The position numbers and the translations under genes were made by a program. Source: Candidatus Undinarchaeales archaeon (GTDB taxonomy: Archaea > SpSt-1190 > JASMDC01). From it: a DNA stretch of 64,000 bases. The DNA lies in contig JASMDC010000003.1 in the NCBI GenBank assembly GCA_030753015.1, forward strand, positions 32,001-96,000, given 5' to 3'. The notes beneath the pieces are model-generated. The model ran no database searches. It was not told the origin of the DNA and saw only the letters and a program-made list of their open reading frames with translations. This document shows, piece after piece, positions 2 to 60,921 of this stretch. How positions within the stretch are numbered: position 1 is the stretch's first letter; each line of letters begins with the position of its first letter.

Positions 2-3000
2 GATGATGCCGTTGATGAGCCAGTGGGCTAGCACCTTGCGCTTCACTATGACCGAAACGTGGGAGTAGGTGCTCCCACCAAAACCATCGGTCGTCCTGAG
101 ACTCACCTGGTGGTTTCCGGAGGGGAGATCCAGGAAGGTGCTGGACGAACTGGTCCGGACCACAACGTTCCCGTCCACCAGCACCGAGGTGATGACGTTG
201 GACTGTTGCTGCCAGGTCAGGTCGAATCCCGCATGGACCTCGTCCCCGTCCGAAGGAGAGGAGATCGGTACATCCCAGTCCGCTCCCACCACGTACACGT
301 CGCCAGCAGTCGATGTAACTATGATGTCCCGTCCATCGCCCATGTTGAACACGCCCGATCCGCGGATACCTAGTTCGCGTACGATACGACCCGTGGCGAC
401 GTCGAGAACATAGAGCGTCGGAGACGGTCGCCCGCCCTCGCGCCCCACAAGCGCAGTGAAGGCAAGCTCGCGACGCCCGTCGCCTGTGATGTCGTTGATC
501 GTGGAAACGGCGACCGCGGGCTGGAACTGGTCGACGTCCTTACGTCCCTTGAATAGATGCACCTTATCGATCTCCTGGCCGGAGACGAGGCTGTAGAACG
601 TCACGGTGATATCCCTCTGCCACATGGCGGTGGCGACGACGGCCAGTTCGTTCACACCGTCACCGTCCATGTCCTTGACCACCGTGGCGGGCTCGATGTT
701 ATCGATGCGGAGGGTATCGAGCATCCAGGTCTCCATGGGATGCGGGTACCTCCACCCATCCATGTTGGCACCGGACTGCTTCACGACCAATTCGGGCCCC
801 TGCGGGCCCCACCGCTTGAACTGCATTAGGTCGTCGGCCCCGTCACCGTCGAGGTCACGGACCCAGCGCCCGCCCCCTGAACCATCATCATCCATGGTGA
901 GCACGACCTTCCCGAACCGACTGTCAAGGACAATTAGCTGCTCGGGCATGTCCCTGCGGTGTACGCGCACACCGATGTCCGGACGTCCGTCCCCCGTGGC
1001 ATCGTCCACCAGACGGATGTTCTCCTTGTTGAAGTTAGCCTCCTCAGGACTCCAGCGCCACAACGGCCGCCAGCTTCCTGAGCGCTCGCTCTTGAGCACC
1101 AGCACTTCCTTCCAAGAGGCTAGTAAGAGCTCGTCAATACCATCGTTGTTGAAATCGCCCAATGATCGGAGGACGTTCCGGTCATTTTCGAGGAACGACC
1201 ACTCGAGCTTTTTCACGCGGTCTTCCTCCTCCTTACCGTCCTTGAAAGGATCCTGGAAGGACCATGCTTGGTTGGTCCTTGTGAGGAAGGGTTTCCCGGT
1301 CAGTCCGTCGAGGACGTACACCTCGCGCCAGCCGCTCACGAGCACGTCGTCCACATCGTCCCCGTTGAGGTCTGACAGTGTATCGACGGCCACAACCCGC
1401 TTGCAGATCCGCAGGTTCTGCTCCCGCTCCTTGACCTCCTGACGCATGCTCCTTGCCCGTTCCTCGGCATTCCTGAGCTGGTTACGCTCCTCCTCCTCCT
1501 CAGGAGTGCGCTCCCGCTTCCAGTCGAGACGCTTCAGCCGCTCCGAATCGACCCCCAGCCTCTGGTCGATGATCGACGGATCCTTGAAGATATCGTTCCA
1601 TGTCCCATAGTGGGTTCCATCTGCGACAGGAGTGCGCCAGATGTCAGTTCCCGTGGCGCCGGAGATGAGCACGATGCGGGTCCGATCACCGTACTGGTCC
1701 CCCCAATCCCAGTCGCCTGGAGCTTGGACGAACGCAAGGATATCACGCTTCCCGTCCCCGTCCATATCGTCCGTCAGACGCACCTGCTGGAGCGTCAGAC
1801 CCGAGAGCACGTCCTTGATGGGCACCCGATACTCCCAAGCTTGCTCGTGTGTCGCACCGTCCATGACGAAAAGAAGGCGCGAGGAGCCCTGGTCGTTATT
1901 GTCCTGAGGATTCGTACGCTCGGCGGAGAGCGCTAGGAGGTCCGGATTCTCGTCACCTACAAGGTCGGCTGTGAGGTAGGTAAGCCCCGCATAGCGAGGA
2001 TAGCTCCATTGCACCCGTCCGCGCATGTCTAGCATCACCAGATCGGTGCGGTCGGATGCGAGGACCACACCATCGCCGAATGGCAGCACCCACAGCGATG
2101 ACTTGTCAAGGGCGAGCGTCATGTTCGGCTTATAGGGTGCTAGCTCGGTCATGTTGGCAGCCCACAGACGGCTCATACCTGATGTGGTAGGCATCAGCAG
2201 GGTCTCGCCAATAACAGGGAGGCGCTCGACCTGTTGGAGCCCCGCATCGTGCCGGCTCCACAGGGTGTTCCCCCTGCGCGAGGAAAGGGCCACTAACAGG
2301 CGTTTCTTCCCCATGTATCCCTGGCCGTTCTGTTGCTGCTGCTCGCCCCCACCAGGCCAGGTGGCGGCCACGATATCCTCCTGTCCGTCCCCGTCGATGT
2401 CGGGGATGATTGCGATGCGGAGGTTGAAGTAGTTGTCCATGTCAGGGGTGGTGGGGGATAGAGATTGTCCACGCATCCCCCCTTTGTAGTAGCGTGATAG
2501 CATGAGGGCGTCGTACTCGAGCACGGTGGTGTTCCATTCAACTCGCCCCGCTCGACCATTGATGAGGAGCACATTACCATCCTCGGTAGATACTACAAGG
2601 GAGTCACCAAGGGGGACGATGTCCCAAACGCTCCGCGTGACCGTTCCCATTTCGCGGTCCGATCGAGGATCCCGGAGCACCAGGGGTTCAGCGGCACGGA
2701 TCGACCAGAGCTCCTTTCCTGATCGCGCGTCGATGAGATGGACACGTCCATCCTGGCATCCCGCCGCGATGTCCGGCCAGCCATCACCAGATAGATCTTG
2801 CGTGGCGATGATCCTGAACACGTCGTTCGCTGCATCGAACCGCCAAGACAGTTCGCCCGTGATCCCGTTCAACAGGAGCACAGCTGATCCAGAGGCAGCT
2901 ACGAGGTCCAGAGCACCATCGCCGGTGATATCACCTATGGTTGCCAGATCCCACGTGATGGTCTCGGCATCGGTCCATCGGAGCTGGGGATCGTAGGCCT

Positions 3001-3361
3001 CCACGGTTGGTGTATAGCTCCAGTGGACAGCACCCAGTCCGTCAAGCGCAACGATGTTCGGGAACACCTGGTCCCGTGTCGAGTAATAGAATAGGTCGCC
3101 TGCACGTGCGATGTCCGTAACGGCCGAAGAAGCGGCTAGGAACGCGACGCGCTCTCCTGATGCGTCGATGATGTGGACGCCGCTATCGGTCCCAATGGCG
3201 ATGCGGTCGTCCCACGTCTGTAACGTGGTTATGCTCCCTGATAGCCCGCTCGAGATGTGGGCAACAATGTCCTCGCCCGCGGTCACGATGGGGATGGCGA
3301 GCATGATGGTTACGAGCGCGATAGTCGCCCAAAGGGACCCGTGCGTCCAACTCTCGCTCAC
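2..3361 (-). CDS. Large secreted FG-GAP/PQQ-like beta-propeller repeat protein (>1100 aa, runs off left edge)
   Basis: Absent from ORF track because no stop falls in the window. Hand translation from GTG 3361 gives MSESWTHGSLWATIALVTIMLAIPIVTA (signal peptide), then repeats DITGDGALDLV, DLSGDGWPDIA, DLNGDDVDDVLV, DFNNDGIDELL, DLDGDGADDLM, DMDGDGVNELA, DITGDGRRELA. Frame is consistent to base 2. Confidence 0.85.
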   Translation of the reverse strand, partial: MSESWTHGSLWATIALVTIMLAIPIVTAGEDIVAHISSGLSGSITTLQTWDDRIAIGTDSGVHIIDASGERVAFLAASSAVTDIARAGDLFYYSTRDQVFPNIVALDGLGAVHWSYTPTVEAYDPQLRWTDAETITWDLATIGDITGDGALDLVAASGSAVLLLNGITGELSWRFDAANDVFRIIATQDLSGDGWPDIAAGCQDGRVHLIDARSGKELWSIRAAEPLVLRDPRSDREMGTVTRSVWDIVPLGDSLVVSTEDGNVLLINGRAGRVEWNTTVLEYDALMLSRYYKGGMRGQSLSPTTPDMDNYFNLRIAIIPDIDGDGQEDIVAATWPGGGEQQQQNGQGYMGKKRLLVALSSRRGNTLWSRHDAGLQQVERLPVIGETLLMPTTSGMSRLWAANMTELAPYKPNMTLALDKSSLWVLPFGDGVVLASDRTDLVMLDMRGRVQWSYPRYAGLTYLTADLVGDENPDLLALSAERTNPQDNNDQGSSRLLFVMDGATHEQAWEYRVPIKDVLSGLTLQQVRLTDDMDGDGKRDILAFVQAPGDWDWGDQYGDRTRIVLISGATGTDIWRTPVADGTHYGTWNDIFKDPSIIDQRLGVDSERLKRLDWKRERTPEEEEERNQLRNAEERARSMRQEVKEREQNLRICKRVVAVDTLSDLNGDDVDDVLVSGWREVYVLDGLTGKPFLTRTNQAWSFQDPFKDGKEEEDRVKKLEWSFLENDRNVLRSLGDFNNDGIDELLLASWKEVLVLKSERSGSWRPLWRWSPEEANFNKENIRLVDDATGDGRPDIGVRVHRRDMPEQLIVLDSRFGKVVLTMDDDGSGGGRWVRDLDGDGADDLMQFKRWGPQGPELVVKQSGANMDGWRYPHPMETWMLDTLRIDNIEPATVVKDMDGDGVNELAVVATAMWQRDITVTFYSLVSGQEIDKVHLFKGRKDVDQFQPAVAVSTINDITGDGRRELAFTALVGREGGRPSPTLYVLDVATGRIVRELGIRGSGVFNMGDGRDIIVTSTAGDVYVVGADWDVPISSPSDGDEVHAGFDLTWQQQSNVITSVLVDGNVVVRTSSSSTFLDLPSGNHQVSLRTTDGFGGSTYSHVSVIVKRKVLAHWLINGII

Positions 3362-3379
3362 GTCACGTGAGTGCCGCTG

Positions 3380-3395
3380 CACTTTTAAAAAGACT
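3380..3395 (-). promoter_or_regulatory. Archaeal TATA box for the FG-GAP gene
   Basis: TTTTTAAAA on the minus strand about 25 nt upstream of GTG 3361, in GC-rich context. Confidence 0.5.
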
Positions 3396-3686: not shown

Positions 3687-4724
3687 ATGTTCATAGGAGG
3701 ACGTTACCGTAAGGTGCTTGTCACCCTCTCACCGCACGCCCTGGTTATAGAGCGATGTGACCGGCAGGTCCGCCTCGTTGCGTGCGCTCCCCACGCCATC
3801 GAGCAGGGAGGTGAGGACACTCTGGACCATGATATCTGGACCGGCGAGGAGGCCATCGAACTGCTCCGGTCCGGCGCAGTGGACCGCTGTGTGATATCCC
3901 TTCACAACCGCGGTCTGCTCGACTTCAATCGCTTTCCCTCACAACCCTTCGTCCAGTACGGCCGCACGGTCCGGAATCCACCCTATCGCCAGCCTAATCC
4001 CTACCACGGTTCACTTGACGCGAAGGTTGTGCTCGACCTTCATGGTTTCAGGTCCGGGACCCATAGTCGCGGCATCATCCTCGGCATCGGGAGGGTCGAC
4101 GAACTGACAATGAGAGACAGCAGGTTCGTGGGGGCTGTAAGGAGCAGCGCATCCTTTGGAGCCAACCTCCTTATCAGGATAGCTCGCGAGGCTCTCCGGC
4201 GGAGCCCTGGGATGACGCTGGAGCTGCACGCTTCCCTTGACCTGGTACGGCTCCCCTGTACCGCGGGCAACGTCCCTCGCGTCGTTCTCACCGAAGAGCG
4301 CTTGGTAGAGATGGGATTCGTGAGCGGAGAGCTTGTCGCTCTCGGACTGATCCATGACCGCAGCGGTCGGGTCGCAGGGGTGGAAATATGTCGTGAGGCC
4401 GCGGACACCGACGACGAACTCGTAGTCGAGTCAGGTGATCGTGAACGAGTGGAGCTCCCACGAAAGCTCAAGGTGACGGAGCGGATCGACTTGAGCGGTC
4501 GGCACGTCTTCACGTTCACCGGGCGAGGATTCCGTATTCGTGATGGGAGCGCATTCCGTCGCTATCTCCCGGGATTGCGTAACTACACCTTTCGCTATCT
4601 AGCAAAGAGGGGTGTTGCTTGCGTCCAGGTCGAGCAGACCAAGGGAGTGCGAGAGAGTTTCGCTCAACGGCTATCTGGAGCAGGGTGCGTTTTCCGCGTT
4701 CCAGAGGGTCAACGCTGGATGTAG
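3687..4724 (+). CDS. Hypothetical Zn-amidohydrolase-like protein (N-formylglutamate amidohydrolase / poly-gamma-glutamate hydrolase-like)
   Basis: Motifs APH, DFNR, VLDLHGF and late VQVEQ occur in the order expected for this fold. Start uncertain (3549 or 3687). Confidence 0.45.
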   Translation: MFIGGRYRKVLVTLSPHALVIERCDRQVRLVACAPHAIEQGGEDTLDHDIWTGEEAIELLRSGAVDRCVISLHNRGLLDFNRFPSQPFVQYGRTVRNPPYRQPNPYHGSLDAKVVLDLHGFRSGTHSRGIILGIGRVDELTMRDSRFVGAVRSSASFGANLLIRIAREALRRSPGMTLELHASLDLVRLPCTAGNVPRVVLTEERLVEMGFVSGELVALGLIHDRSGRVAGVEICREAADTDDELVVESGDRERVELPRKLKVTERIDLSGRHVFTFTGRGFRIRDGSAFRRYLPGLRNYTFRYLAKRGVACVQVEQTKGVRESFAQRLSGAGCVFRVPEGQRWM

Positions 4725-7700
4725 GCATCGTAGTTGTAGTACTGACGTGCGCTGTAATAACTGCTGTAGTCAGAGTATGTTGGCGTCGCGGCCGCGGCCT
4801 GTGTCTGGGCAAGAGCGACCGCCGCCTCATCTTGTTTCCGCTTTCGGTATACAATGAGCACGAGGGTGAGCCCTATCAGGGTCACAACAGCGACGAGCGC
4901 GCCCACTGACGAGAGGAAGGACGACGCGTCCTCGTCACCGCCACCCCCGGTCACGACCTCGTCATCACCGCCATCGTCACCCCCATCAGAGCGTGCCCGC
5001 GGGGTCGCGGTGGCTGCTGTTCCCAAGGTGCGTCCGCCACCACCACCATCGTCACGGTCATTGCCAGTACGATGGTCCTTGGTATAGTCGAGCACCGTGC
5101 TGTCCGATCCACTCCCCCCGGTATCGGTATCGGCCCCCGTTCCGTTCCCGGGATCGGGTGACGGCGTGGGCGAGGGGGCCTCATCTTCCTCCTCTTCCTC
5201 CTTAGCAAAAACGTCGATCACCTTGCGGTCGTACCCCTTCAGCTCCATGTACTTGAGCAGGTCGTACCCTGCGGCCTTCTGTGCCCCTTTGTCCTGGTCC
5301 AGGAGATAGCCGGCCCGCTTGCGTCCCATGCAGCCTCCCAGACAGGCGGTGAGGTTAGCGGGCACCGACAGGCACTGATGGCACCGGCCGCATACACCCC
5401 GGTCCTCCTCCTCCGTGTAGACCTTCGCACATATGTCCCCAAGGAGCGCGTTCCCCACGCACTTCGCGACGCACGAATCCTGGCCCAGCGTCGTCACACG
5501 ACCTGCGCAGGAGGAGCACTGCATGCAGGCGCCCATGCACCCGTCGAGTTCAGGATGGTTACCGCAGAACCGAGCGCAGATGGCACCGAGCAGGCGGGAG
5601 CGGTCGACGCACCGTTCCACAAGGCATCGCCAGATCTCTGCAGGGCTCTTCCCTGTATCGCACAGTCGGCACTCGCGGCAGGAACCGTCGGTTATGTTGT
5701 ACTGTCGTGCCAGGGTGCTGCACAACCGCATCCGTTCCATGAACGACCGGATCATCTCCCGGATATGGCTATAGCACTCCTGCCCCCGCATGACGGCGAT
5801 GGCCTTGAGAGCGTACTTGATGGCCCGGATGTACTTCTCGCGCTCGAACTCCTTCTTGGCGTTCTCGATATGCCCACGCACCGCGGCCGCTTTGGAGTGG
5901 TCGCAGATGATGTCCTCGGTACCATCGCGTCCGCTGTAGGACAGCTCGTATAGCTCCTCCGCCTCCCTGATGCGCTCGATGGCCTCCTTGCGCAGAGCGT
6001 CAGGGTCCGTGTTGGCCGTGGGGGTGATGTACTCACCATGTTTGGAGTCCTGGTAGAGCGCGGCGTTCTTGAGCAGCTCGATGGCACGGTCCGCGTACCG
6101 TATGGCGTTACGGTACTCGGCCATCTCGTACTCATCCTCGGCCTTCTCGATGAGCTCCCACGCAACGATCTTGACCTCCTCGTTCGTGCTCTTGGCATGG
6201 AGCGCCTTGGCGGTCTCGATCCGCTGTCGTGCGAGCATAGCCAGCTCGTTCTGCTCCTCGCCTTCCAGACCGGACACCAGGCTCTCCAGGTACTCCTGGA
6301 GCTCGGGATCTGTGTCACGGGCCGCTTCCAAGGGATCCACCATCTTGTAGCAGCCGTCCCTCGTGGCCGTATTGGGGATCAGGTCGCATATTGTCCTTAC
6401 TCGGTCATAGGCCTCGTTGCACATGTCGATGACATCTATGAGCGGGTCCCCTTCCAGTCCGACGTTCTTGGCTCTCTTCCCTTTGTTGCATATCTTTGCT
6501 ACGGTGTTGAATGGAAGGTCGGTCTCTCGTTTGATGGCCTTCAGCTCCCGTTTCTTCGCTTTCTTGGCAGCATTGAGCAGGCAGCCGGACAGGCTTTCAT
6601 CGTCGATGACCGATAGGCAGATGGGCACGGACTCGTAGGGCGCCTTGGACATCTTAAGCTGGGCAATACCGGAGAAGCACGAGTCACGGATCTCCCGGAC
6701 GTTGTCTGGAGAGTGGGGGATACGTTCACATGCATCGATGGCTCTGGGGAATCCACCAAGGTCGTCACGGAACGCTACGTTAGTGGCCACCTGTGTGTAG
6801 CAGTTGCCACGCTCCATCGCCGAGGCGATCCAGGTACCACACACGTCCTCGGCCCTCAACGGTGGTCGGTTGGTGACCACGGCATTGAGCACGTCGTGAT
6901 AGCACTGATCACGGACATGGCGTCCGCGGTTCGTCGTAAGGATGGTGTTGATGCAGTCGCCGTTACCACAGTTGTCAGTGATGCAGGTGCCCGAGTAGTG
7001 CCAGCAGTTCTTTCCCCAGTCGCCGCACCCCTTGTCATTGTGCACGCACTTGGAGCGGAAGCATCCCTCGTCGATGCAGGGGACGTGACGCGCAGCATCC
7101 TTGTTGTAGTACATGGACGAATCCCATTCCTCGTCCTTGGCCTTCACTCTTGAGTTGATCTTGTGGCAGGTGCTCAAGGCCTTGGTGGTGTCAGCGTATC
7201 GCAGGGAGTAAGCTGATGAGCGGTAGCATTCATTGCGGTCGGCCCATAATGATTCAAGGCACTCGGTGTGGCAGTCGTCGCGGTGGCTTGCGGCGATGGC
7301 GTTCTTGTCGCAAGGATCATCGTCAGGGCACGTCACAAGGTTGGGATCACCTTTCTCGTCGCACTTCCATGGATCGGCCGCGCACGTGGTCCCGAAGTCG
7401 ATGATCCGCGTGTCGTAGGACGAGCATCCGCCCACGACGACGTCGGCAGCGATGTCGCCGTACAGCGTGCTTCCGAGAGTGTGATAACATTCGGTGCGCT
7501 TGTACACATAGGGGATGCGGGCACAGTCATCGAAGGCGTACCTGAAAAACTCCCTGTCCGCGAACCGACGCGACATGTCCTTGTAGCAGTTGGTCCTCCG
7601 CAGTAAGGAGCGGAAGTAGGTCCAGCCATTCTCGTAGCCCCACGTGAGCCAGTGGCGCTCATCCGGTTCAAGATCGCACGAGTCGCCTGTGTGGGTCCGG

Positions 7701-9745
7701 TGCTGCTTGTAGACCAGCTTGGGGCCGGGGCCCACGAGGCACTTGTCCCGCTTGTCCCTCTCTGAAGCGCGCCCGCATTCGAAAACGCCGAGGAAGAAGT
7801 CCGGATCATGAGCGTACCCTTCGTAGAAGATGGCGTTGCCCAGGACGCACCCATCCCATTCTTTAGCCCCCTTGGGAAGGCAGGGACGGAGCGTGGGCGT
7901 GCCTTGGCCCATGAGTTCCTCTACCCTGTTGGTGCAATGGGTCTGGATGCGGCTCTCCTCGAAATCAAATTTCTCGTGGTAGGCGATGGACGAGCGGTCG
8001 TATGTGAAGTCGTCCTCCGACCGGGGCATATAGCGTATCTTCTTGACGCACACCTCGTTCTCGCACCGCCCCTCGAAGTCGTCGCATTTGGTGGTGTCAG
8101 GACGGGATATGCACTCGAACGGCCGGGCGATGTCCACACAACGACCGTTGAGGCACGCACCCTCACCCGAGTCGCACGGCACACCGTTCGCCCACTCGCC
8201 GAGGTCCTCAAGCGCGTCATCCTCGTCCAAGGAGGGCTTCGCCTTGGTGACACGCGCAGTCGAGCACATGTCCTCGGGCTCCATGAGAAGAGGCACGCAC
8301 GTATTGTACCAGCAGAGGCCCGTACGATCGCCACAGGGTGCGCCATCGGCTCCCGAGGTGCAGTCCTCGTTCCCCTCCAGTACGGTCCGGATACAGGTCT
8401 CACCGAGGCAGATGCCGAATCCACGGTTGCATCTGTAGCCATCGGTCCCGGCACCTCGGCACTCCCGGTCGCGGGTTCCTGACTGGTCCACACAGGAACC
8501 GTACATGCACTTGCCACGGAAATAGTTACATGGTTGACTGTCCGTCTTTTGGCCGCACCCGTCGAACGGCGAGGCCAGCTCCAAGCAGATACCTTTGAAG
8601 CAGATGCCCAGAGCCGAGTTGCACCCCGTACCGTCCGCGCCACACGCCGCGCCCGGGACATGCTCAAGGCACCGCCCGCCGCCGCAGACACCGAGACCCC
8701 CGTAGCATCCAGCACCGTCGTCCTTGTCCCGACACTCGTCTCGGTACGGGAGGTCGAGCACGCACCATGCGTGCAGGCAGGTCCCCTTGCCCTTCTTGCA
8801 CTTCCTGCCGTTACCCTGTCCAGCGCACTCGTCCGGCTGAGGGAACAGTATCTCCAGACCCTTTTTCTGCCAGCAGATACCGCGTCCATCGGCCACCAGC
8901 TCGCCATCATCGAGCCCCTTGCCTTCGTTACCGCGCTTACACGTGAAGTCGAGCAAATTGTTGCCCCAAACAAGGGCCGCGCATTTCTCTGCGATGCACG
9001 TTCCGAACCCGCCGTTGCAGATGGAGCCATCCGCCTTGCCATGACACTCGTCGTTGTCAGGATTAACAGGGATGCATGGCCCGAGCAAGCAGACGCCCTT
9101 CTCGTTGTCGCAGGAGTCTCTGTCCCCCTTGAAGGTGCATCCGTCGTAAGGATCGATGATCTCCATACAGTGTTTCGCGTGGCACACACCGGTGTGTTTG
9201 GCACAACGCTGGCCGTCCGAACCGTCCCCACAATCGCCCGGCTCCTTCGCGATCGTGGCTCGGCAGGCCCCGGTGACACAGATCCCTTTACTATCACCGC
9301 AGGACTGTCCGTCCTCGCGTCCCGAACATTCCGTACCGGAGACGACGGTGATATTGGTGACCATGCCCGAGCAGATGTCGTACCCGGTCGATTCCTGGTT
9401 ATTGCGTTTGGTATGCTGGATGGCGACATATCGCGCAGCTGTAGCGTTGCGGAGGGTGTCCAGGATAACGTTGAGGATGCCTAACGCAGCATTCGTGTTG
9501 CCGATGTTCGCATAATACTTTACAGCCTCTGTACAGAACTCGTCTCGTGCGATCCCGGCCTGTACCCTGCAGCGCGAGCGGCAGCGGGGCCGAGCGGCTT
9601 CGGACTCGGAGATGCAGCTATCATAGCACGTACTGAGCTGGTCGGAGTAATACCCATTATAGTCCCAATTAATGTTAAAGAAGCCGACCGAAGGAGAGAG
9701 CACCAATATCAGCGCCAGAATGATCGCAACATGTCGTCGGACCAT
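4709..9745 (-). CDS. Giant Cys-rich single-pass surface protein (1678 aa)
   Basis: Signal peptide; 13 four-Cys repeats; C..I....RD.CY repeats; helical repeats; three CxxCxxC repeats; Gly/Asp/Thr linker; C-terminal TM (VGALVAVVTLIGLTLVLIVY-RKRK); Tyr-rich tail. Confidence 0.9.
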   Translation of the reverse strand: MVRRHVAIILALILVLSPSVGFFNINWDYNGYYSDQLSTCYDSCISESEAARPRCRSRCRVQAGIARDEFCTEAVKYYANIGNTNAALGILNVILDTLRNATAARYVAIQHTKRNNQESTGYDICSGMVTNITVVSGTECSGREDGQSCGDSKGICVTGACRATIAKEPGDCGDGSDGQRCAKHTGVCHAKHCMEIIDPYDGCTFKGDRDSCDNEKGVCLLGPCIPVNPDNDECHGKADGSICNGGFGTCIAEKCAALVWGNNLLDFTCKRGNEGKGLDDGELVADGRGICWQKKGLEILFPQPDECAGQGNGRKCKKGKGTCLHAWCVLDLPYRDECRDKDDGAGCYGGLGVCGGGRCLEHVPGAACGADGTGCNSALGICFKGICLELASPFDGCGQKTDSQPCNYFRGKCMYGSCVDQSGTRDRECRGAGTDGYRCNRGFGICLGETCIRTVLEGNEDCTSGADGAPCGDRTGLCWYNTCVPLLMEPEDMCSTARVTKAKPSLDEDDALEDLGEWANGVPCDSGEGACLNGRCVDIARPFECISRPDTTKCDDFEGRCENEVCVKKIRYMPRSEDDFTYDRSSIAYHEKFDFEESRIQTHCTNRVEELMGQGTPTLRPCLPKGAKEWDGCVLGNAIFYEGYAHDPDFFLGVFECGRASERDKRDKCLVGPGPKLVYKQHRTHTGDSCDLEPDERHWLTWGYENGWTYFRSLLRRTNCYKDMSRRFADREFFRYAFDDCARIPYVYKRTECYHTLGSTLYGDIAADVVVGGCSSYDTRIIDFGTTCAADPWKCDEKGDPNLVTCPDDDPCDKNAIAASHRDDCHTECLESLWADRNECYRSSAYSLRYADTTKALSTCHKINSRVKAKDEEWDSSMYYNKDAARHVPCIDEGCFRSKCVHNDKGCGDWGKNCWHYSGTCITDNCGNGDCINTILTTNRGRHVRDQCYHDVLNAVVTNRPPLRAEDVCGTWIASAMERGNCYTQVATNVAFRDDLGGFPRAIDACERIPHSPDNVREIRDSCFSGIAQLKMSKAPYESVPICLSVIDDESLSGCLLNAAKKAKKRELKAIKRETDLPFNTVAKICNKGKRAKNVGLEGDPLIDVIDMCNEAYDRVRTICDLIPNTATRDGCYKMVDPLEAARDTDPELQEYLESLVSGLEGEEQNELAMLARQRIETAKALHAKSTNEEVKIVAWELIEKAEDEYEMAEYRNAIRYADRAIELLKNAALYQDSKHGEYITPTANTDPDALRKEAIERIREAEELYELSYSGRDGTEDIICDHSKAAAVRGHIENAKKEFEREKYIRAIKYALKAIAVMRGQECYSHIREMIRSFMERMRLCSTLARQYNITDGSCRECRLCDTGKSPAEIWRCLVERCVDRSRLLGAICARFCGNHPELDGCMGACMQCSSCAGRVTTLGQDSCVAKCVGNALLGDICAKVYTEEEDRGVCGRCHQCLSVPANLTACLGGCMGRKRAGYLLDQDKGAQKAAGYDLLKYMELKGYDRKVIDVFAKEEEEEDEAPSPTPSPDPGNGTGADTDTGGSGSDSTVLDYTKDHRTGNDRDDGGGGGRTLGTAATATPRARSDGGDDGGDDEVVTGGGGDEDASSFLSSVGALVAVVTLIGLTLVLIVYRKRKQDEAAVALAQTQAAAATPTYSDYSSYYSARQYYNYDAYIQR
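8040..9335 (-). repeat. 13 protein-level tandem repeats C-x4-DG-x2-C-x4-G-x-C-x4-C
   Basis: Examples: ECSGREDGQSCGDSKGICVTGAC, ECHGKADGSICNGGFGTCIAEKC, DCTSGADGAPCGDRTGLCWYNTC. Confidence 0.85.
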
Positions 9746-9754
9746 GAAGGAGCC

Positions 9755-12700
9755 TCACTCGAGCGGTTTGAACATGCAGTTGTCGCAGGTGCAGAGGTTG
9801 AACACGGCTGTACATCCAGACCTGATCTCGACAGAGCATTCGGGATTGCATCCATCGCACTCAATGGCCAGTCGGCACTGGTCGTACCGGGTCGTGGACA
9901 GTATACGCACCTTCTCCTCTCCACCGCCGCCGGGGCTTGCTCGTAAGCGCCATGTCCGCGCTACGGTGTCCAGCCACTCTGCACTATTGACATCAATCGC
10001 GTTGAGCTCAACGACATGGTCGTTGGGCTCGAGGATGAGCGAGCCACCACCCTCTATTTCCTGGGACGTGCGTCGTGCACGCGCCTCGAAGGTGGTCCGA
10101 AGCGTCTCGTCGTCACCACGAAAGATCTCCAAGTTCGTGAAGACCTCGCGATGTACCGTGTTCAGGTCAGTGTCGCGTACGATCAGCTCGATGTTCCCCT
10201 GGAAGTTCGTGCCCATGTCGTTGCGGAGCTTCGCCCGCAAGGTCACATCCTCTCCATCGTACACCGACTCCGTCATTCTTCCCCCGCTATCAGCGAAGTC
10301 GATGCCCGTGAGGGTAAGATAAGGATTATGCACGACAAGGGCCAGTTCGGGGAACCGCTTGGCATCAAGTACGATCTCAGTGTAAATGAGGGACGGATCG
10401 TTGCGGTCCTTGACGACCACGGTCACATTGATGAACCCTCCCGCCATGTAGGTCCCGATGGATCCCAGCATCCCGGTCTTTATGGCTACCGGCTTATACG
10501 GCTCGAGAGCAGGATAATCGTTGTTGAACGTACCGGAGATATCGGTGCCCTGGAACTCAGCGAGATTGGCTATGATGGAGACCTGCTTGGTATCTGAGTA
10601 GGAGGAAACCACTTCCAGGATCGCTTCCACCGAGTCGCCCGGGTAAGCGTCCGTCGACCGCAGGTCGTTGATAAAGAACGCCGCATCCATGACCGAGATT
10701 GTGTTCGGTTCGGGTACGAAGATGCGGGGCATGACCTCGGACTCGACACGGTTTCCGGCGAAGAGGAGCGCAGCGTCCGCGAGCAGCACTTCGTTCTGCA
10801 TGGCCGCCGTCACCTCAAGCTCGAGGGAGATGTGACGTCGTGTGTCCGGGGACACGGAAATATCAGGGATCGTGCGGCTGAGGAGCGTCTGGGTCGATGT
10901 CCGGACCGTCAGCTGGAGCTCGCCGTTTGTTAGCGGATCGAGATAGTCAGTAATCTCGGCACGGAGCGTCAGTTTCTCGCCGACCTTTGCCACCCGGACC
11001 GGCTCACCGTCCGCGTCGAGCCACTCAAGGGCGGAGATGGATGGCTTCGGCCTCTTTGAGACGACGACCTCGTTACCGATGGGCACCTCCTCCAGAACAC
11101 CCTGGCAGCAGTATCCGCTGCTGCTGGTCGACGTGTGGCATTCGTCGATTTCGCCGCTGCCCTGCTCGTCGCAGTAGTCCTCAAGGCGCTCGATGGTGTC
11201 CTCGGACAACGCGGGCTCGCACCGAGCATCCTCCAGCACGAGCGGGAACAGGCCCGTTCGGCAGGCACAGCGCTTGCTGCTCGGCAGGCAGTACCCATCG
11301 GTACCGTGCTCTTGGAGACAGAGCGGCGAACAGGTATCGTCGACGGGGACCTCGCCATCGGGACACTCCTCGAGGTTGTACACGCACGAGCTATCACAGC
11401 ACAGACCCCGTCCCTCGTCGCATGCCACGCCATCGTTGCCAGCACATACTTCCTCGCCGCCGCCTTCACACGACTCTCGCTCGAGGAAGCATCGTCCGTT
11501 GCAGCACAGACCATCGCCGTCGGAGCACTCATCACCGTCATCGATACAGTCCTCTTCTTCCTCGATGACCTCCTCACAGCTCTCGCGGTCGGCGGTGCAC
11601 CACCCTTCGCAGCAGATGCCGTGATTGCCCGAGATCGTGTTGCACTGCGACTCATCCTCGCGGAGCTCACAGCAGGATGCCACGTTCTCGCAAGAGTCAT
11701 CGCAACAGATTCCGAACATGCACTGGCGCCCGTCCCGGACCCCGAGGCACTCCTCATCGATCTCCTCTTCACCCTCGAAGGGCAGCTCCTCCTCTCCCCC
11801 CTCATATGGTCCGCCGAGGGCGTCCGATGAAGCGGAGTAGAACAGACAGTCCGTGTCGTGCCACATGAAGTCGCCGGGGGAGGATGTCTTGAGGTTGTAA
11901 AGAGCGCAGCGGGTGATGATGCCGTACCGCCAGATGTACTTCTCGTAGTCGGGGGAGATGTCGTCCTCCTTGAACTGGTTCCAGGAGCAGGCGCGGTTGA
12001 TGATCATCTCCAGAGATGACGAGCGGGAGGCGTCATTGTAGAAGGACTTGGTCCACATCGACATCTCGTCAAGCTTCTCCTCGTAGTCCTCGAGGCTCCA
12101 CGACTCGCTACCGCCCGTGAGGCCGCCCTTGCCCACGTCGACCGAGTCGGCGGCCTGCCAGGACGCCTTCAGCCCCTCCAGTTCTTGTCGGATGTCGTTG
12201 TCGCAGGAGCCCGACACGGTGCAGGTGCGTGCCTTCTCCCGTAGCTTCTTGACCCACATGAGACCGGTCTTGAGGATCCCGCCGTCCTTGACCAGCTCGT
12301 TAGTGTATTTAGTTAGCTGGTTGACCTTGAAAGTGTAGGTCATGGGATCGTGGGTGTCACCGATCGAGAATAGGTCCGGTTCCACGGAACAGATGTCGTC
12401 GACGATGCCCGTGCGTTTCCCGCACTCCTTGGCCACCGACCATGTCGGGATCTGGAACGGGATGCCTATAGGTGAGGAGAATGGCTTGTTAATCTGGCAC
12501 TGGACGGGGATGAGCATGGAGGCAAGTGACGAGATCCAGCACACGGTGCAGGAGTTCCACCACAACTCGCCCGCCATCGGCGGGTATGGCGCATAAAGTG
12601 GTATCCCGAACAGGCACATCTCTCCGATGCCATGCTGGAGCAGTTCCTTGCCCTGCGCGAACACGCAGAACCCGGTCTGCACGCCCATGCCCACTTCGAT

Positions 12701-15700
12701 CACGACCAGGTTATTGAGTATGTTCTCATAGAATGTAATCGCGTTCTCGTAATACTTCACAGCGGTGTTGTAGTAGATGTAGAGGTTCGGATGCGCCTTC
12801 TCGGGACAGGCGATGAAATGCTTCATGAACTTGACGTCGCATGCCACGCCCGAGAGACAGAACGCCATGCACACGGCCTCGCCAGCAAGCTCCGCACCCA
12901 TCTGGCCCCACGAACCGCCACCGCCTGTGAGCTGGGAACCGACACCGCCGGGTGCGAAGAGCGCCGTGCACGTCATACGGATTCCATAGAGCGTAAGGAT
13001 GGCCTCGAGCTTACTGTCACCGGACTTGTCGCACCCCTCGAAGCAGGCCAGCCGCGCGGCCACGTCCTCGACGAAAGCGCACTGGCCCTTGCACCCTTGG
13101 CAGTCATCCATACAACCCCCCTTATCATAGGCAGAGAAGCACACCGCATCGCAGATGCCGTTGGTGATCTCTACCGCAAGGTCGTCGATGCACTGGGCCG
13201 CGCACTGCTTGAGGTCAGGGGCGGTCAGCGGGCACATCGTGCACTTCTGGCACACCTCCATGCACCCGGGTTCTCCCCCGCACAGCTCCTGACAGATGTC
13301 GAACAGGATGCCGTTTACACAGTCCTTTGTCCCTTCGAGGAGACACTCTTTGATTTCCCCGCCCTCCTTCCCTGCGCACTGGACGTTGGATCGGCAGCAG
13401 GTGATGCATGTCAGCGGATTGGGGAAGTTCGAGCAGAAGGCGTCGCACTCGATAAAGAGCGACTGTGCACCGATACAACCACCTAGACAAGCGAGGCGGT
13501 CACCTGCAGGTCGCCTGCAACACATACCGCATCCGAGGCACACCTCTTTGCACGACTCGTACGTGCCCTCGTCCCGCCCCTCACACGCTTGCTCGCACAG
13601 GCCGGTTATGAGAGGTGGGCACACACAGTCGAGGAAGCAGCGGTCCCGAGAGCGTTTCGTGTCCTTGAATAGGCACTCCGTACAGCCGCAGCATTGGTCG
13701 AAGCACGGGCCTGACGTCTCGCCCTGGCATACCCACGGGCACGACGCTTGGCAGATGTCCAGGGCGTTGATGCATCCCTCGTTCACTAGGCACTCACGTA
13801 CCTTGCGGGCACCACCCGCCCACAGGCACTTGGTGCATCCGAGGCACGCACCGATGTCGATACCCGCGCTGGCCTCGAGCTCCTCGCAGATGTTTGTGAT
13901 GATGATCCCCGACTTGTGGAAGAGACAGCCCGTGATGCACTCGGTCAGCTGCGCCGGCTCCATGTCACCGTTGCATCCGTACGGACATCCCTGGCAGACG
14001 ACGCAGGTTGACACGCAGCGGGTGAGCTCTTGGCCGGAGAGTCCCAGTTGGTCCTGGCAGACGGTGAGGCAGGGGATCTCCAGTGGATTCCAGCAGCTCT
14101 TCAGGCAGTTGTTGCGCTTCTCCTTCTCCTCGATGTCATAGCAGGCGAGGCATGAGTCGCACACATCGTAGCATGACTTCATCTTGAGGTTGTTGGAATA
14201 GTCCGCACAGTTCGGTGTGAGCTCGATGAGGCATTCCCCGTGCATGCAGATGCCCCGCCTGGTGGTGAGGTCGTCGAAGCACACCTTTCCGTCGGCCCCA
14301 TCCTGTTTGCATACGGATGGGACCTTGATGGTATGAGCTATACAGGCTGGGGGCCGCCCGCCCGGGTAGACGCACACACCGCTACCCGCCGAGCACCACA
14401 CCTTACGGCCACGCTCCTGCCGCTGCTGGGCAACGGAGCACTCCTCGCGCCCGTTCCCTCCCAGCTCCATGCACTTTCCCTTGAGGCACACGTGCCCGGT
14501 CGTCTCGCACAGGTACCCGTCCGGCGCGGGCTTCGTCTTCTTTGTCTTGGGGTCCTTGTAGGTGCATCCACTGGACTTGCCGTAGTGGCACTCGCCACCG
14601 AAGCAGAACCCGCTGGACCCGGACTTCTCGGGATCGGTGCAGGGCCGCCCTTCGCTGTTGGGCGCTTTACATGTGATAGGTATCTTTCGCGCGCGACGCA
14701 CGCACGCCAGCCCCCCACCGAACATCCGCTTGCAGTACTGGGGGGGTTTCTTACCTTTGCACTCGGACGGAGTGTTGGGCAGCATCAGGCATGTGCCCTT
14801 AGAGCGGTAGCAAGTAGAGCCCCCGCCGGTCGCTAGTTCGCAGCTCCACTGGCCGTTCTTCTCCGTACACACCCCCTTCTGGCCGCCCGAGGCGGTGCAT
14901 GTCATGCCCGATGTCCCAGACTTGCCGCAGTCGGCCTGGGTGAGGACCTTGCAGTACGCGCCCACTTCTACACCCGAGCTGAGGCCCGCCTGTACCCCTT
15001 CCATGCATACGCCCTCGGCGCCATCCGCGGTACGACAGGCGTGACCAGAGGTCAGCATAGTGCACTGGTCCTCCACGGCCTGGTACTTGCCTGCGCACTC
15101 TTGATAGTTATAATCGGCCAGCTTCATGCACCTGCTCTGGAAGCAGATGCCATCCTTGGAGCATCTGTCACCATCGGCCTTGCCGGTGCACGGATTCTTC
15201 GTGGCGGGCAGCACGGTCTGCACGAGCGAGTCGAGCTTGTCGCCCAACGCGTCCACTGAGCATCCGATGGGCGTATGACAAGCTATCTTGCACCCGAGCT
15301 CGAAGGCACACTTCTGGAGGCACGTCGTACGCTCCTCCTTCGGGCCGAAGAAGCAGAACGTACACTTCTGACAGAGGTCTGTGCACACACCCACCTTCAT
15401 GCTTGGTTCGCACTGTGGATCGGAAATCGTGACCTCAGAGTAGGTCTCGGTCACCGTAGTAACGCCCGACTCCGGATCGTAGTCCTCGTACTTACTGTCC
15501 TGCTGATATCCAAGGTGGATGTCGCCTCCGAAGAGGTTGCTATCACCGAATGCAACATCAGCGAAGTTCTCGCACGCGATGGTGCACACCGCGCCCCCCA
15601 GGCAGTTCATAAGTAGGCATCGCCCGACCGCCTCGCCCCAGCTCTCGTCACCCTGTGGCTTGGCGAGCAGGCAGTACGCGCAGTTCTGGCAGATGAAGTT

Positions 15701-16954
15701 ACCGCGGTCCTCGCAATTGTCCTTATTGATCTCGACCCCCATGAACTCTACTTTATCCTTCATGTTCTTGCACATGACGTTCTTGACGATGAGCGGGCAA
15801 ACCTCGTACTGGAGTATGCAGGTGATGGTGCAGTTGAGGATCTTTTCCCCGTCCCAGATGAACTTCTTCTTCTTCACGTCGTAGTAGAAACCCTCGTTGA
15901 TACACTCGCCGCACTTGTAACAGATATCGAGGCAGGATGACTCATCGATGTCCACCGGCTCGTCGGACATCTTCTGGATGAGGGCGTCACCACCAGTGCA
16001 GATACCGGCACACATGGGGCCGATGATGAGCGCGCGGACGCCACAGGCCATGAAGCAGTTGGTTTGTTCCTGCTTACCATCCACGATGATGCACTCGCAA
16101 CAGTCCTCCACCAGTGCGTTGCACTCGTACTCCACCTGCACCTGCAGCGCCTTCTTCTGTGGGATGAAAGAGAATATCCCCTCCATCATGTTCTCGCAGA
16201 CCTCCCCCAGGAGTGGGGCTGCAAGCGTCTTGCACATGCATTTGCTGATGAGGCACTTGTTGAAGACCTCTTTCCGTCCCTTCGAGGTCTTGGGGCCACC
16301 TGAGGTGGGTATCAGCGTCAAGAGGCACTGACCACAGTTCTTGCATACGTTGAAGAGCAGTTCGTTATTACTCCGACAGGGCGCCTCGCATCCCATGATG
16401 TCCTCACAGACCTCGGAGAGGATTAGGTCACCTAGACAATGCTCGACCCAGCAATTGCTCTCCTTCGAATCACCGCCTGAGCCCGAGTCCGTGATGAAGC
16501 AGTCCAGGCACCCGCAACCGATCTCAACGCACTCGTCCGTGCGGACCCTGGGTATCCACGAGGATATGGCGTACTGGCAGGGGGGCTTGAGGATCATGTC
16601 GCAAAAGGGCTTGCCCAGGCACCGGATAAGGCAGGAAGTTCTCTTGCCCTCGGGCTCCAGGGCGCACTTCACGCACTCGATACGGGTGCAGAGCTTAGTG
16701 AGGAAGGGATCGCCACCGCACAGCTCCTTGCACAGGGGATTGATGATGGCCAGCAGCTGACGGATGACGCATTCCTGAAGACATTCACTGCGGGCTCCCG
16801 AGTCACTGATGCGAATGCACTCACCGCACTCGTAGCACATGTCGAGCATCTCGTCGCCCTTGATCGTGAAGTACTTACCAGAGGATGCCGTTGTGGGAAG
16901 GAGGAAGAGAAGGAACAGTACGAGCACCGCCATCCTCCCTCGTAAAGCTACCAA
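9755..16954 (-). CDS. Giant secreted Cys-rich protein (2399 aa) with C-terminal Ig-like domains and terminal Cys module, no TM anchor
   Basis: Signal peptide MAVLVLFLLFLLPTTASS; about 16 CxxxC..CxxCxxC..CxxxC repeats in two blocks; DG-x2-C repeats; three beta-rich Ig/CARDB-like domains; ends CRLAIECDGCNPECSVEIRSGCTAVFNLCTCDNC. Start TTG 16954 or ATG 16933. Confidence 0.9.
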   Translation of the reverse strand: MVALRGRMAVLVLFLLFLLPTTASSGKYFTIKGDEMLDMCYECGECIRISDSGARSECLQECVIRQLLAIINPLCKELCGGDPFLTKLCTRIECVKCALEPEGKRTSCLIRCLGKPFCDMILKPPCQYAISSWIPRVRTDECVEIGCGCLDCFITDSGSGGDSKESNCWVEHCLGDLILSEVCEDIMGCEAPCRSNNELLFNVCKNCGQCLLTLIPTSGGPKTSKGRKEVFNKCLISKCMCKTLAAPLLGEVCENMMEGIFSFIPQKKALQVQVEYECNALVEDCCECIIVDGKQEQTNCFMACGVRALIIGPMCAGICTGGDALIQKMSDEPVDIDESSCLDICYKCGECINEGFYYDVKKKKFIWDGEKILNCTITCILQYEVCPLIVKNVMCKNMKDKVEFMGVEINKDNCEDRGNFICQNCAYCLLAKPQGDESWGEAVGRCLLMNCLGGAVCTIACENFADVAFGDSNLFGGDIHLGYQQDSKYEDYDPESGVTTVTETYSEVTISDPQCEPSMKVGVCTDLCQKCTFCFFGPKEERTTCLQKCAFELGCKIACHTPIGCSVDALGDKLDSLVQTVLPATKNPCTGKADGDRCSKDGICFQSRCMKLADYNYQECAGKYQAVEDQCTMLTSGHACRTADGAEGVCMEGVQAGLSSGVEVGAYCKVLTQADCGKSGTSGMTCTASGGQKGVCTEKNGQWSCELATGGGSTCYRSKGTCLMLPNTPSECKGKKPPQYCKRMFGGGLACVRRARKIPITCKAPNSEGRPCTDPEKSGSSGFCFGGECHYGKSSGCTYKDPKTKKTKPAPDGYLCETTGHVCLKGKCMELGGNGREECSVAQQRQERGRKVWCSAGSGVCVYPGGRPPACIAHTIKVPSVCKQDGADGKVCFDDLTTRRGICMHGECLIELTPNCADYSNNLKMKSCYDVCDSCLACYDIEEKEKRNNCLKSCWNPLEIPCLTVCQDQLGLSGQELTRCVSTCVVCQGCPYGCNGDMEPAQLTECITGCLFHKSGIIITNICEELEASAGIDIGACLGCTKCLWAGGARKVRECLVNEGCINALDICQASCPWVCQGETSGPCFDQCCGCTECLFKDTKRSRDRCFLDCVCPPLITGLCEQACEGRDEGTYESCKEVCLGCGMCCRRPAGDRLACLGGCIGAQSLFIECDAFCSNFPNPLTCITCCRSNVQCAGKEGGEIKECLLEGTKDCVNGILFDICQELCGGEPGCMEVCQKCTMCPLTAPDLKQCAAQCIDDLAVEITNGICDAVCFSAYDKGGCMDDCQGCKGQCAFVEDVAARLACFEGCDKSGDSKLEAILTLYGIRMTCTALFAPGGVGSQLTGGGGSWGQMGAELAGEAVCMAFCLSGVACDVKFMKHFIACPEKAHPNLYIYYNTAVKYYENAITFYENILNNLVVIEVGMGVQTGFCVFAQGKELLQHGIGEMCLFGIPLYAPYPPMAGELWWNSCTVCWISSLASMLIPVQCQINKPFSSPIGIPFQIPTWSVAKECGKRTGIVDDICSVEPDLFSIGDTHDPMTYTFKVNQLTKYTNELVKDGGILKTGLMWVKKLREKARTCTVSGSCDNDIRQELEGLKASWQAADSVDVGKGGLTGGSESWSLEDYEEKLDEMSMWTKSFYNDASRSSSLEMIINRACSWNQFKEDDISPDYEKYIWRYGIITRCALYNLKTSSPGDFMWHDTDCLFYSASSDALGGPYEGGEEELPFEGEEEIDEECLGVRDGRQCMFGICCDDSCENVASCCELREDESQCNTISGNHGICCEGWCTADRESCEEVIEEEEDCIDDGDECSDGDGLCCNGRCFLERESCEGGGEEVCAGNDGVACDEGRGLCCDSSCVYNLEECPDGEVPVDDTCSPLCLQEHGTDGYCLPSSKRCACRTGLFPLVLEDARCEPALSEDTIERLEDYCDEQGSGEIDECHTSTSSSGYCCQGVLEEVPIGNEVVVSKRPKPSISALEWLDADGEPVRVAKVGEKLTLRAEITDYLDPLTNGELQLTVRTSTQTLLSRTIPDISVSPDTRRHISLELEVTAAMQNEVLLADAALLFAGNRVESEVMPRIFVPEPNTISVMDAAFFINDLRSTDAYPGDSVEAILEVVSSYSDTKQVSIIANLAEFQGTDISGTFNNDYPALEPYKPVAIKTGMLGSIGTYMAGGFINVTVVVKDRNDPSLIYTEIVLDAKRFPELALVVHNPYLTLTGIDFADSGGRMTESVYDGEDVTLRAKLRNDMGTNFQGNIELIVRDTDLNTVHREVFTNLEIFRGDDETLRTTFEARARRTSQEIEGGGSLILEPNDHVVELNAIDVNSAEWLDTVARTWRLRASPGGGGEEKVRILSTTRYDQCRLAIECDGCNPECSVEIRSGCTAVFNLCTCDNCMFKPLE

Positions 16955-24160: not shown

Positions 24161-24749
24161 TCCCTGCCGACGCGCCACCATCGACGTGTTCGGGCTGGTC
24201 GCTCTAGCAATATTCGGCCTTATAGCGGCCGTCCTCCTCATCCGTTTCACCGGGCTCACGATGGGTGCAATGGGCGAGACCCATGCCGCCAAGAACATCA
24301 ACGAGATAGTCGTGGGGGCCCGTAAGGCCTGCCGGGACGGTGAGGCCGTCGTGAGCGCCTTCACCGTTCCCGAGCAGTACGCGTACGTGGTACGCACCTG
24401 CAATCTGTGGGAGTGCACTGACGGCAACTGCCAGGACGAGACGATCGCCGGCCATAACTGGCCCCTGGACGCCGATAGCAAGCGCAAGGTGTTCGACAAG
24501 TTCTGCAACGGTCGTGACTCACAGAACCTCCTGGCCGCCTGCTACATAATCTATGGCGTCCACCACGACTGGGGACCGCTGGGGCAGCTCATGGGATGGA
24601 AGCGCATCGTCGCAAAGACGCGTAAGTGCGAGAACATCCACTGCGGCATACCCTACGATATCAATCTCATCATGCCCGGCAAGCAGAAGTACCGCATGAA
24701 CATCGTCAGGGACGGCGAAGCCCTGGTGGGGAGGCAGTACGATGTCTGA
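24144..24749 (+). CDS. Prepilin-like protein 14
   Basis: MRALPSPCRRA|TIDVFGLVALAIFGLIAAVLLI; start moved to ATG 24144. Confidence 0.8.
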   Translation: MRALPSPCRRATIDVFGLVALAIFGLIAAVLLIRFTGLTMGAMGETHAAKNINEIVVGARKACRDGEAVVSAFTVPEQYAYVVRTCNLWECTDGNCQDETIAGHNWPLDADSKRKVFDKFCNGRDSQNLLAACYIIYGVHHDWGPLGQLMGWKRIVAKTRKCENIHCGIPYDINLIMPGKQKYRMNIVRDGEALVGRQYDV

Positions 24750-26037: not shown

Positions 26038-26039
26038 GG

Positions 26040-26522: not shown

Positions 26523-26523
26523 G

Positions 26524-53888: not shown

Positions 53889-53898
53889 GGGTGCCCCC

Positions 53899-55584: not shown

Positions 55585-55649
55585 GGTACAGACCTTCCGA
55601 TGAACCACGGCCACTTATCTTCTTATGTCTTTAGTCCGCGCGGGGGAGC

Positions 55650-58284: not shown

Positions 58285-58285
58285 A

Positions 58286-59005: not shown

Positions 59006-59007
59006 CG

Positions 59008-60828: not shown

Positions 60829-60921
60829 GGTATGAACCGATGGAGTGGAGGAGGTTCATTAATAAAAAACCTCGCCGCCCCCGGTAGGTTTTTGAATGTG
60901 TGCCCCCGACCTCACGGGATC

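Follow-up and report, generated by a model that had tools for sequence, protein, structure and literature searches.

The 64-kb window analysed here is part of the 3.85-Mb genome of an uncultured marine Candidatus Undinarchaeales archaeon (G000), and carries on its minus strand two adjacent genes for cysteine-rich (Cys-rich) proteins, A (9755–16954) and B (4709–9745), of 2399 and 1678 amino acids (aa). Our preferred reading, to which we give about an even chance of being correct, takes A and B as a genus-level operon for two surface proteins that draw on a common pool of modules within a huge surface repertoire, the eight-Cys module at the C-terminus of A acting as a family-wide handle and the gene pair p9/p6 being the best genomic candidate for its partner. 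A preliminary description, made from the sequence alone, had taken A and B as one of two occurrences of a unit in which an unanchored giant is followed by a membrane-anchored partner; A–B does not appear to be an instance of such a conserved unit. The terminal module itself is a real discovery and represents a new surface-protein family. Archaeal cell surfaces beyond S-layers and a few pili are poorly known, and the retention of unanchored giants on a single-membrane cell is an open question; here a marine archaeon devotes about a tenth of its genome to disulfide-rich giants, at least 19 of which end in one eight-Cys module that is new to Pfam, NCBIfam and PDB sequences. In what follows, G001 is the sister genome of the same genus (3.6 Mb), C (55650–58040) and D (53899–55614) are the two minus-strand genes proposed as the second occurrence, names such as P0023 or P0031 are database proteins homologous to A or B, and names such as C36a or C39_25875 are contig-based labels of open reading frames (ORFs) in G000.

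The sequence around their junction places A and B in a tight, probably translationally coupled arrangement. Nine nucleotides (9746–9754) separate the stop codon of A from the ATG of B, with a GAGG just upstream of this ATG that overlaps the stop codon, and an independent DNA contig covers 9530–12059, that is, across the spacer. ORFs and hydropathy agree on the first pair as originally described, with B carrying a signal peptide, a C-terminal transmembrane segment and a tail. In G001 the orthologues of A and B are both truncated by contig ends, and these ends face one another as would fit adjacent genes. For the A homologue P0082 (72% identity) and P0075, a member of the B cluster at 83%, the longest contig is 124,575 in both cases, and the pair therefore probably persists in this third relative. 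DNA of the A–B junction was found in metagenome runs from marine, seawater or vent samples, 18 runs in all, belonging to at least 11 studies. Two metatranscriptome runs from two studies each hold three short contigs of A and three of B, at ≥99% identity in one run and 90–99% in the other (five at 95–99%, one at 90–95%). Co-transcription of A and B is putative: none of the RNA contigs in these two runs bridges 9746–9754, and the RNA libraries may include carried-over DNA.

Two repeat types are common to A and B, as had been proposed. Type-1 repeats (CxxCxxC ... CxxxC ... CxxxC, ~50 aa each), read from the translation of A, form a first block at residues ~36–560 (15275–16849, minus strand, as are all coordinates in A and B), where CxxCxxC motifs start at residues 40, 204, 345, 422 and 528 and units defined by regular expression (regex) fall at 40–79 and 528–559. 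A second type-1 block at A ~916–1310 (13025–14209), recognised from the unit list, includes the part most like residues 1341–1476 of B, which are three membrane-proximal type-1 repeats (5318–5725; BLASTP and phmmer); the match of A 1022–1164 to these repeats has a composition-corrected BLASTP E of 1.2e-7. Type-2 repeats (C..DGxxC..GxC..GxC) occupy A ~568–912 (14219–15253), with BLASTP similarity to B 123–554 at E 1.4e-10 without composition correction, and B 123–577 (8015–9379; eight regex units, BLASTP). A run of small CC-type Cys repeats at A 1733–1880 (11315–11758), related to type 2, resembles B 371–577 and the D ectodomain by BLASTP, and the composition-corrected type-2 match lies here (A 1741–1866 against B 371–492, E 4e-4). 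Both similarities passed a shuffle control, with uncorrected A–B scores of 62 bits (type 1) and 56.6 bits (type 2), where the best of 100 shuffled versions of B scored 35.4 bits. When B 1335–1480 was compared with all G000 ORFs by BLASTP and phmmer, only A, C36a and C36b were recovered, plus a weak match to another anchored protein, C27_658. A profile hidden Markov model (HMM) of type 1 made from five A units recovered A and the C36 pair, not B, whereas BLAST and phmmer with the B repeats did connect them. The best paralogous match of the B type-2 repeats is to residues 1988–2321 of C25_45769, at 32% identity.

The two proteins differ in how they would be held at the cell. Hydrophobic segments were scored by Kyte-Doolittle hydropathy in 19-residue windows with a threshold of 1.8. 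Protein A contains 223 Cys (9.3%) and is a giant of secreted type, as judged from its ORF translation, hydropathy and orthologues at 92%, 72% and 46% identity; its sole segment above the threshold is a signal-like stretch at residues 1–26 (16877–16954), conserved in the orthologues, which is a putative signal peptide. Beyond residue 26 no window of A exceeds 1.8, the best remaining ones reaching 1.3–1.77 and each containing two to four Cys, and hydropathy thus agrees with the earlier view that A is unanchored, with no cryptic membrane anchor apparent. Protein B, with 115 Cys (6.9%), is a type I membrane protein by ORF and hydropathy. Its segments above 1.8 are the predicted signal peptide at residues 4–26 and a transmembrane segment at 1607–1635 (4841–4927; maximum 2.87), after which the translation gives a 43-aa tail (1636–1678; 4712–4840) made up of a basic stop-transfer stretch and a Tyr-rich cytoplasmic part with eight Tyr. 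About 20 type I proteins of G000, Cys-rich or not, end in the same manner as B, with a transmembrane segment, a Gln/Ala/Gly-rich tail and a terminal Tyr-rich stretch.

The preliminary description had further expected giants with the terminal module to be followed consistently by an anchored Cys-rich gene. This was not borne out: a module HMM and a check of the next gene gave 2 of 19 module giants, a count that covers G000 only. On the same strand the next gene is another module giant for five of them, a p9 gene for three, an anchored Cys-rich gene for two and a small unrelated gene for two, and is absent for seven. The two anchored cases are A followed by B and C followed by D, both in the window. 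This frequency does not differ from that seen for the remaining Cys-rich genes of large size (3 of 80; Fisher p 0.24), and the adjacency therefore reflects general clustering of surface-protein genes. The nearest G000 paralogues of A, the tandem C36 pair (~28% identity over ~680 aa), are not followed by an anchored gene. No paralogue of B was found in G000. A search of 5.8 billion clusters, which samples only 100 words, gave B one homologue at 83% and two fragments at 81–92%, and none of lower identity; the comparable search with A gave homologues at 92%, 72% and 46%. The last of these, P0031, lies on contigs of 59–108 kb, and the missing B-like protein is suggestive but not decisive evidence against a conserved partner. 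A third pair of like build is present at 108320–115027 of G000 contig C73, where C73_111284 (1248 aa, unanchored and Cys-rich) is followed, with a stop-to-stop gap of 3 nucleotides, by C73_108320 (987 aa, anchored and Cys-rich, with a Tyr-rich tail); this pair is unrelated in sequence to A and B.

The second occurrence, which had been placed at 58032–53899, stands in part. An open frame with the terminal module is indeed followed there by D, a single-pass Cys-rich protein, but the start and signal peptide of the first gene have been lost and neither member is a homologue of its counterpart in the first pair. What remains of C in G000 is a 796-codon open frame ending in the eight-Cys module, with no ATG, GTG or TTG before 57737 and no signal peptide. 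Its G001 orthologue has 875 aa including a signal peptide; a 923-aa p9-family gene (E 1.9e-110) lies before it and the D orthologue after it. Comparison by blastn of window positions 53000–61000 with G001 showed that 4,368 bp are deleted from G000 here; the junction, where the flanks overlap by 11 bp, is at 58032–58042, so that coordinate 58032 is a deletion junction, not a start. Lost with the deletion were the first ~78 codons of C, an entire p9 gene and the 3' portion of a UbiA-like gene, a fragment of which is found at 57976–58284. C in G000 is thus either a 5'-truncated remnant or an assembly variant, and the deletion itself may be a strain variant or an assembly artefact. D, identified from its ORF, hydropathy and G001 orthologue, is a type I membrane protein of 571 aa (561 from the likely ATG at 55584) with a signal peptide, a Cys-rich ectodomain of ~205 aa, a transmembrane segment at 239–267 and a 305-aa cytoplasmic part comprising an acidic linker, zinc-ribbon-like CxxC pairs and a DUF4350-like domain (Pfam DUF4350 at E 8.7e-7, 29.8 bits, just under the cut-off of 30.4). 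B and D match only in generic Cys repeats (22% identity, E 2e-5) and are otherwise unrelated, and A and C have only the C-terminal cassette in common, at 14% identity. A complex prediction of the D ectodomain (31–236) with the last Ig-like domain and module of C scored 0.00 against a mark of 0.32, which gives no answer either way.

The C-terminal cassette is the element that A has in common with the wider family. An AlphaFold2 (AF2) model of the last 360 aa of A, made from an alignment of the 19 paralogues, is all beta with a mean predicted local distance difference test (pLDDT) of 87.4, and its residues 44–171 and 171–303 form beta-sandwiches of seven to nine strands, as in immunoglobulin-like (Ig-like) and CARDB-type surface domains. 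Three Ig-like beta-sandwich domains are assigned in this way to A ~1965–2343 (9926–11062). Structural comparison with VIA-align matched the Wzt carbohydrate-binding domain (Z 12.0, root mean square deviation 2.7, 114 aligned) and Gram-positive adhesin repeat domains (Z 10.6), with CARDB 3idu at Z 8.5 and GH2 Ig-like domains also matched; Foldseek returned transglutaminase beta-barrels and similar folds (E 9e-8, template modelling score 0.37). As modelled, these are matches to generic Ig-like folds. The Ig-like domains of the preliminary description are accordingly upheld by fold (Z 10–12 for the best matches) and not by Pfam, which at E ≤ 0.01 gave 0 families for A and a weak Mannosidase_ig match (E 0.0016) for 1 of the 19 C-terminal regions. 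No curated sequence family (CARDB, Big, PKD) matched the Ig-like region, Wzt_C falling short of the cut-off at E 0.068.

Beyond the Ig-like domains, A ends in the eight-Cys module (residues 2350–2399; 9758–9907) with the pattern C-x6-C-x2-C-x3-C-x7-C-x6-C-x-C-x2-C. It is modelled as five short beta strands (model residues 310–358) in a region, 305–360, that was barely covered by the fold searches. The terminal Cys module had been noted earlier for A and C, and can now be extended to all 19 paralogues: across their alignment the eight Cys of this ~45-residue module are invariant. Between A and P0031 identity is 55% in the module region, against 30–33% in the Ig-like region. No Pfam, NCBIfam or PDB sequence match to the family was found.

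Searching for the Cys spacing by regex at ORF ends identified 18 giants in G000, and the module HMM re-found 15 of these 18 seeds (A and the C36 pair not being listed) and added C30, giving the 19. A 364-position profile of the last 360 residues recovered every one of the 19 and, in addition, the divergent members C29:199473 and C20:1196, for 21 in G000, and about 23 matches in G001. For 17 of the 19 module giants the N-terminal hydrophobic segment is the only one, the exceptions being C, which has none, and C30, with an extra segment at 261–279. The profile has no match in the other 15 genomes sampled from the phylum (0.6–1.2 Mb), and in a set of 401 archaeal genomes from 139 families matches at E ≤ 1e-8 were confined to G000 and G001. 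In 1.84 billion representative proteins there are 51 matches at E ≤ 1e-3, 27 of them at ≤ 1e-30; the regex-defined module is terminal in 26 of the 51, and 12 of those 26 fall below 60% identity with every G000 ORF, which means that the module also has somewhat more remote carriers. A scan of genome contigs with one peptide pattern found the sister genome only (7 loci), no relative was confirmed among JGI metagenome contigs scanned with sequence patterns, and no description of this protein family turned up in the literature searched. Among the genomes searched the family was thus found in one genus only, and it appears lineage-specific.

A second pair of gene families, p9 and p6, accompanies many of the giants. 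The p9 proteins are ~910–965 aa long and have a signal of Sec type; most of them carry, close to the C-terminus, an NPGxW motif and then a terminal or near-terminal Cys; p6 proteins have ~610–650 aa and many copies end in Cys. A class III signal consists of a short basic N-terminus, [KR]G and a hydrophobic stretch of ~20 residues. The N-terminus of p6 has this pattern: of 22 listed p6-type ORFs, 14 show [KR]GQ immediately ahead of the hydrophobic stretch and two more show RAQ. It agrees with archaeal class III (type IV pilin-like) signals as PMC4858521 gives them. By its N-terminus p6 therefore resembles a pilin, and its maturation and assembly into a filament are putative. At genome level G000 has both a prepilin peptidase and an assembly ATPase (four Peptidase_A24 and five T2SSE matches over cut-off, with one ATPase 3 kb from a p9 gene). 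All 19 p9 genes of G000 have p6 within two genes, directly adjacent in 18 (an example of the pair is L049, C39:8751–13288), while a gene of ≥1000 aa lies within three genes of 14 of the 19 and a module giant does so in 7. Two pairs of cassettes have been duplicated as units, C21/C41 (p9 62%, p6 63% and giant tail 53% identical) and C39/C30 (53%, 63% and 45%). In addition the module giant C39_25875 (G000:C39:25875–33833, 2653 aa) contains at its residues 355–778 most of a p6 body, covering profile positions 71–497 of 631 (E 7e-118), and is thus a natural fusion joining both families. Neither p9 nor p6 (one p6 member scanned) has a Pfam or NCBIfam match.

We propose that A and B, which run in one direction and are probably expressed together, encode disulfide-rich proteins of the cell surface. 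A is one of at least 19 giant exported proteins without a detected anchor, all ending in predicted Ig-like domains and the eight-Cys module, and B is a one-off type I protein built partly from the two repeat types of A and provided with a widely used transmembrane segment and Tyr-rich tail. The terminal module may serve as an attachment or assembly handle keeping the unanchored giants on a shared surface structure, for which p9/p6 would be the best genomic candidate, and A may in addition lean on B through the common type-1 repeats. The likely role of the giants would be adhesion or cell–cell recognition. From the two-partner surface system of the preliminary description we thus retain two exported, disulfide-rich proteins of surface type, one unanchored and one type I, but not their recurrence as a unit. 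A bolder version, for which the chances are rather low, is that the eight-Cys module is a universal plug docking interchangeable giant adhesins on a pilin-like p6/p9 structure, with ~20 cassettes providing this archaeon, whose genome is unusually large beside those of the tiny Undinarchaeota, with a combinatorial repertoire for grasping cells or particles and A–B as its membrane-anchored variant.

Several points weigh against our preferred reading of A–B as an operon within a general repertoire linked to p9/p6. The G000 gene calls are coarse, being crude greedy longest stop-to-stop ORFs (n = 3206), and the comparative data comprise one genus plus database proteins without visible genomic context. 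An anchored Cys-rich neighbour is more frequent for the giants (2 of 19) than for the rest of the genes (15 of 3107; Fisher p 0.0045). For p6, 0 pilin or class III families in Pfam or NCBIfam matched at E ≤ 0.1 (one member scanned), and the p9/p6 hit lists hold no entry on the A–B contig (C51), so that no p9/p6 lies near A–B and the proposed link therefore does not directly cover A. Moreover, the 9-nucleotide spacer, the conservation in close relatives and the subfamily-restricted repeat make A–B tighter than chance clustering, and a specific A–B interaction is therefore possible.

These last features are also what would be expected if B (and D) were dedicated membrane receptors or display stalks for secreted A (and C), docking through the module or the common repeats, an explanation that we consider unlikely. 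The short spacer with GAGG before the ATG of B, the compatible adjacency in G001 and likely adjacency in a third relative, and the near-confinement of B's type-1 repeats elsewhere in G000 to the A subfamily (one weak match apart) are consistent with it, as are the C–D order kept in G001, the enrichment over other genes given above and the presence of both A and B in RNA libraries. However, the anchored neighbour is no more frequent than for other Cys-rich genes, B and D are unrelated and B is without a paralogue, the C36 pair closest to A has no anchored gene after it, and no B homologue below 81% was found though the same tool found the 46% homologue of A. A less probable alternative is that the giants are released matrix- or mucin-like polymers and the module a disulfide-stabilised oligomerisation knot, by analogy with the C-terminal cystine knot (CTCK) of mucins and von Willebrand factor. 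The CTCK is small and Cys-rich and closes off giant secreted proteins of modular, disulfide-rich build; the eight-Cys module, with its invariant Cys, likewise forms the extreme C-terminus of very large Cys-rich proteins of secreted type, no anchor was detected in the giants, and tandem arrays of giants exist. It nevertheless differs from the CTCK in length and Cys pattern, its 8 Cys in ~45 aa are an even number suggesting four internal disulfides, no Cys_knot or CTCK match was obtained with Pfam in A, C or the 19 tails, and total Cys parity is not conserved (223 in A, 224 in its orthologue P0023). It is quite improbable that the module is a C-terminal sorting or secretion signal removed at export or covalent attachment, like the C-terminal domain of the type IX secretion system or sortase-type signals, since although it is strictly C-terminal in 19/19 giants (with at most about 15 residues past the last Cys) and found only on proteins without another anchor, the motif, hydrophobic helix and basic tail of a PGF-CTERM/archaeosortase-type or PEP-CTERM-type signal are lacking from the polar, Cys-rich C-terminus of A, no NCBIfam or Pfam sorting signal matched, no dedicated processing enzyme was seen adjoining the giants, and in a single-membrane organism one would hardly expect a signal in the form of a folded domain with four disulfides.

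Known surface systems offer partial parallels to the operon and repertoire that we favour. The variant-specific surface proteins (VSPs) of Giardia form an expanded Cys-rich CxxC repertoire of type I anchored proteins with short conserved tails; here there is no Pfam VSP match, the Tyr-rich tail is not a fixed pentapeptide, and the giants are unanchored. Large adhesin-like proteins with Ig folds are reported from archaeal type IV filament loci (PMC13705601). As described in PMC13705601 and PMC4858521, these proteins resemble the giants in being very large and exported with several Ig-like folds, in the position of their genes beside genes with class III-like signal peptides, in many conserved Cys expected to form disulfides, and in an inferred role in adhesion or recognition. 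The giants differ in having no arCOG-based or Pfam adhesin match and in ending in the new eight-Cys module; p9/p6 is present 19 times, mostly away from ATPase and platform genes, and the A–B locus has no pilin-like gene. The bacterial type IV pilus tip adhesins PilY1/PilC, named in PMC4858521 and PMC13705601, provide a working analogy only, of a large non-pilin protein on a pilin-type structure, and differ in that the organism here is archaeal, no DUF2341/PilY1 domain matched, and the giants are connected with p6 by genomic evidence only, namely adjacency and one fusion.

The Cys-rich repertoire as a whole comprises 101 stop-to-stop ORFs of ≥500 aa with ≥3.5% Cys, which make up 10.5% of G000, and mean Cys content outside these ORFs is 1.6%. 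The module and the p9/p6 pair are concrete, small and expressible targets for binding and structure work, and the surface repertoire may bear on the relation between a free-living or host-grasping lifestyle and the reduced DPANN forms. Both genomes of the genus are large, at 3.85 Mb (G000) and 3.6 Mb (G001) compared with 0.6–1.2 Mb for the other 15 genomes sampled from the phylum; small-subunit ribosomal RNA was not found in the G000 assembly.

Some further features of gene A were recorded. Its start codon is TTG, with an in-frame ATG seven codons further on, and upstream is an 80-nucleotide spacer containing an AT-rich TTTAAA. Between the second type-1 block and the CC-type repeats lies a central domain without assigned fold (A 1362–1715; 11810–12871), which by tblastn is common to the A subfamily only (the C36 and G001 C7 paralogues) and is 43–58% identical in P0031. 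The AF2 model of A 1362–1730, from a seven-row alignment, had a mean pLDDT of 46 and was unusable; ESM Atlas look-ups of A 1300–1730 and B 580–1330 gave no usable match, and phmmer of A and of B against PDB sequences gave 0 matches at E ≤ 0.01. An argument for a free cysteine based on the parity of the Cys count was dropped, A having 223 Cys and P0023 having 224.

Other large ORFs surround the two pairs. Five co-oriented ORFs of 431, 160, 544, 199 and 430 aa occupy 24742–30039 on the plus strand, and Pfam was blank for the three scanned (431, 544 and 430 aa). Just downstream of B, on the minus strand at 2–3382 and continuing past the window edge, is an almost Cys-free ORF (two Cys) of >1127 aa that has a hydrophobic segment at its N-terminus and contains beta-propeller repeats of the FG-GAP and PQQ-like kinds. 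A 4159-aa ORF just outside the window (G000:C51:104060–116536) has 15.3% Cys, a signal peptide and a late transmembrane segment and ends in GFHP, an ending that also occurs on the giant at C46:7796–15334. Within the window, the plus strand at 34124–42214 encodes a 2696-aa giant with a signal peptide, a C-terminal transmembrane segment, 112 Cys and a Kazal_1 match (E 1.9e-9), which has type-2-like repeats in common with A, B and D.

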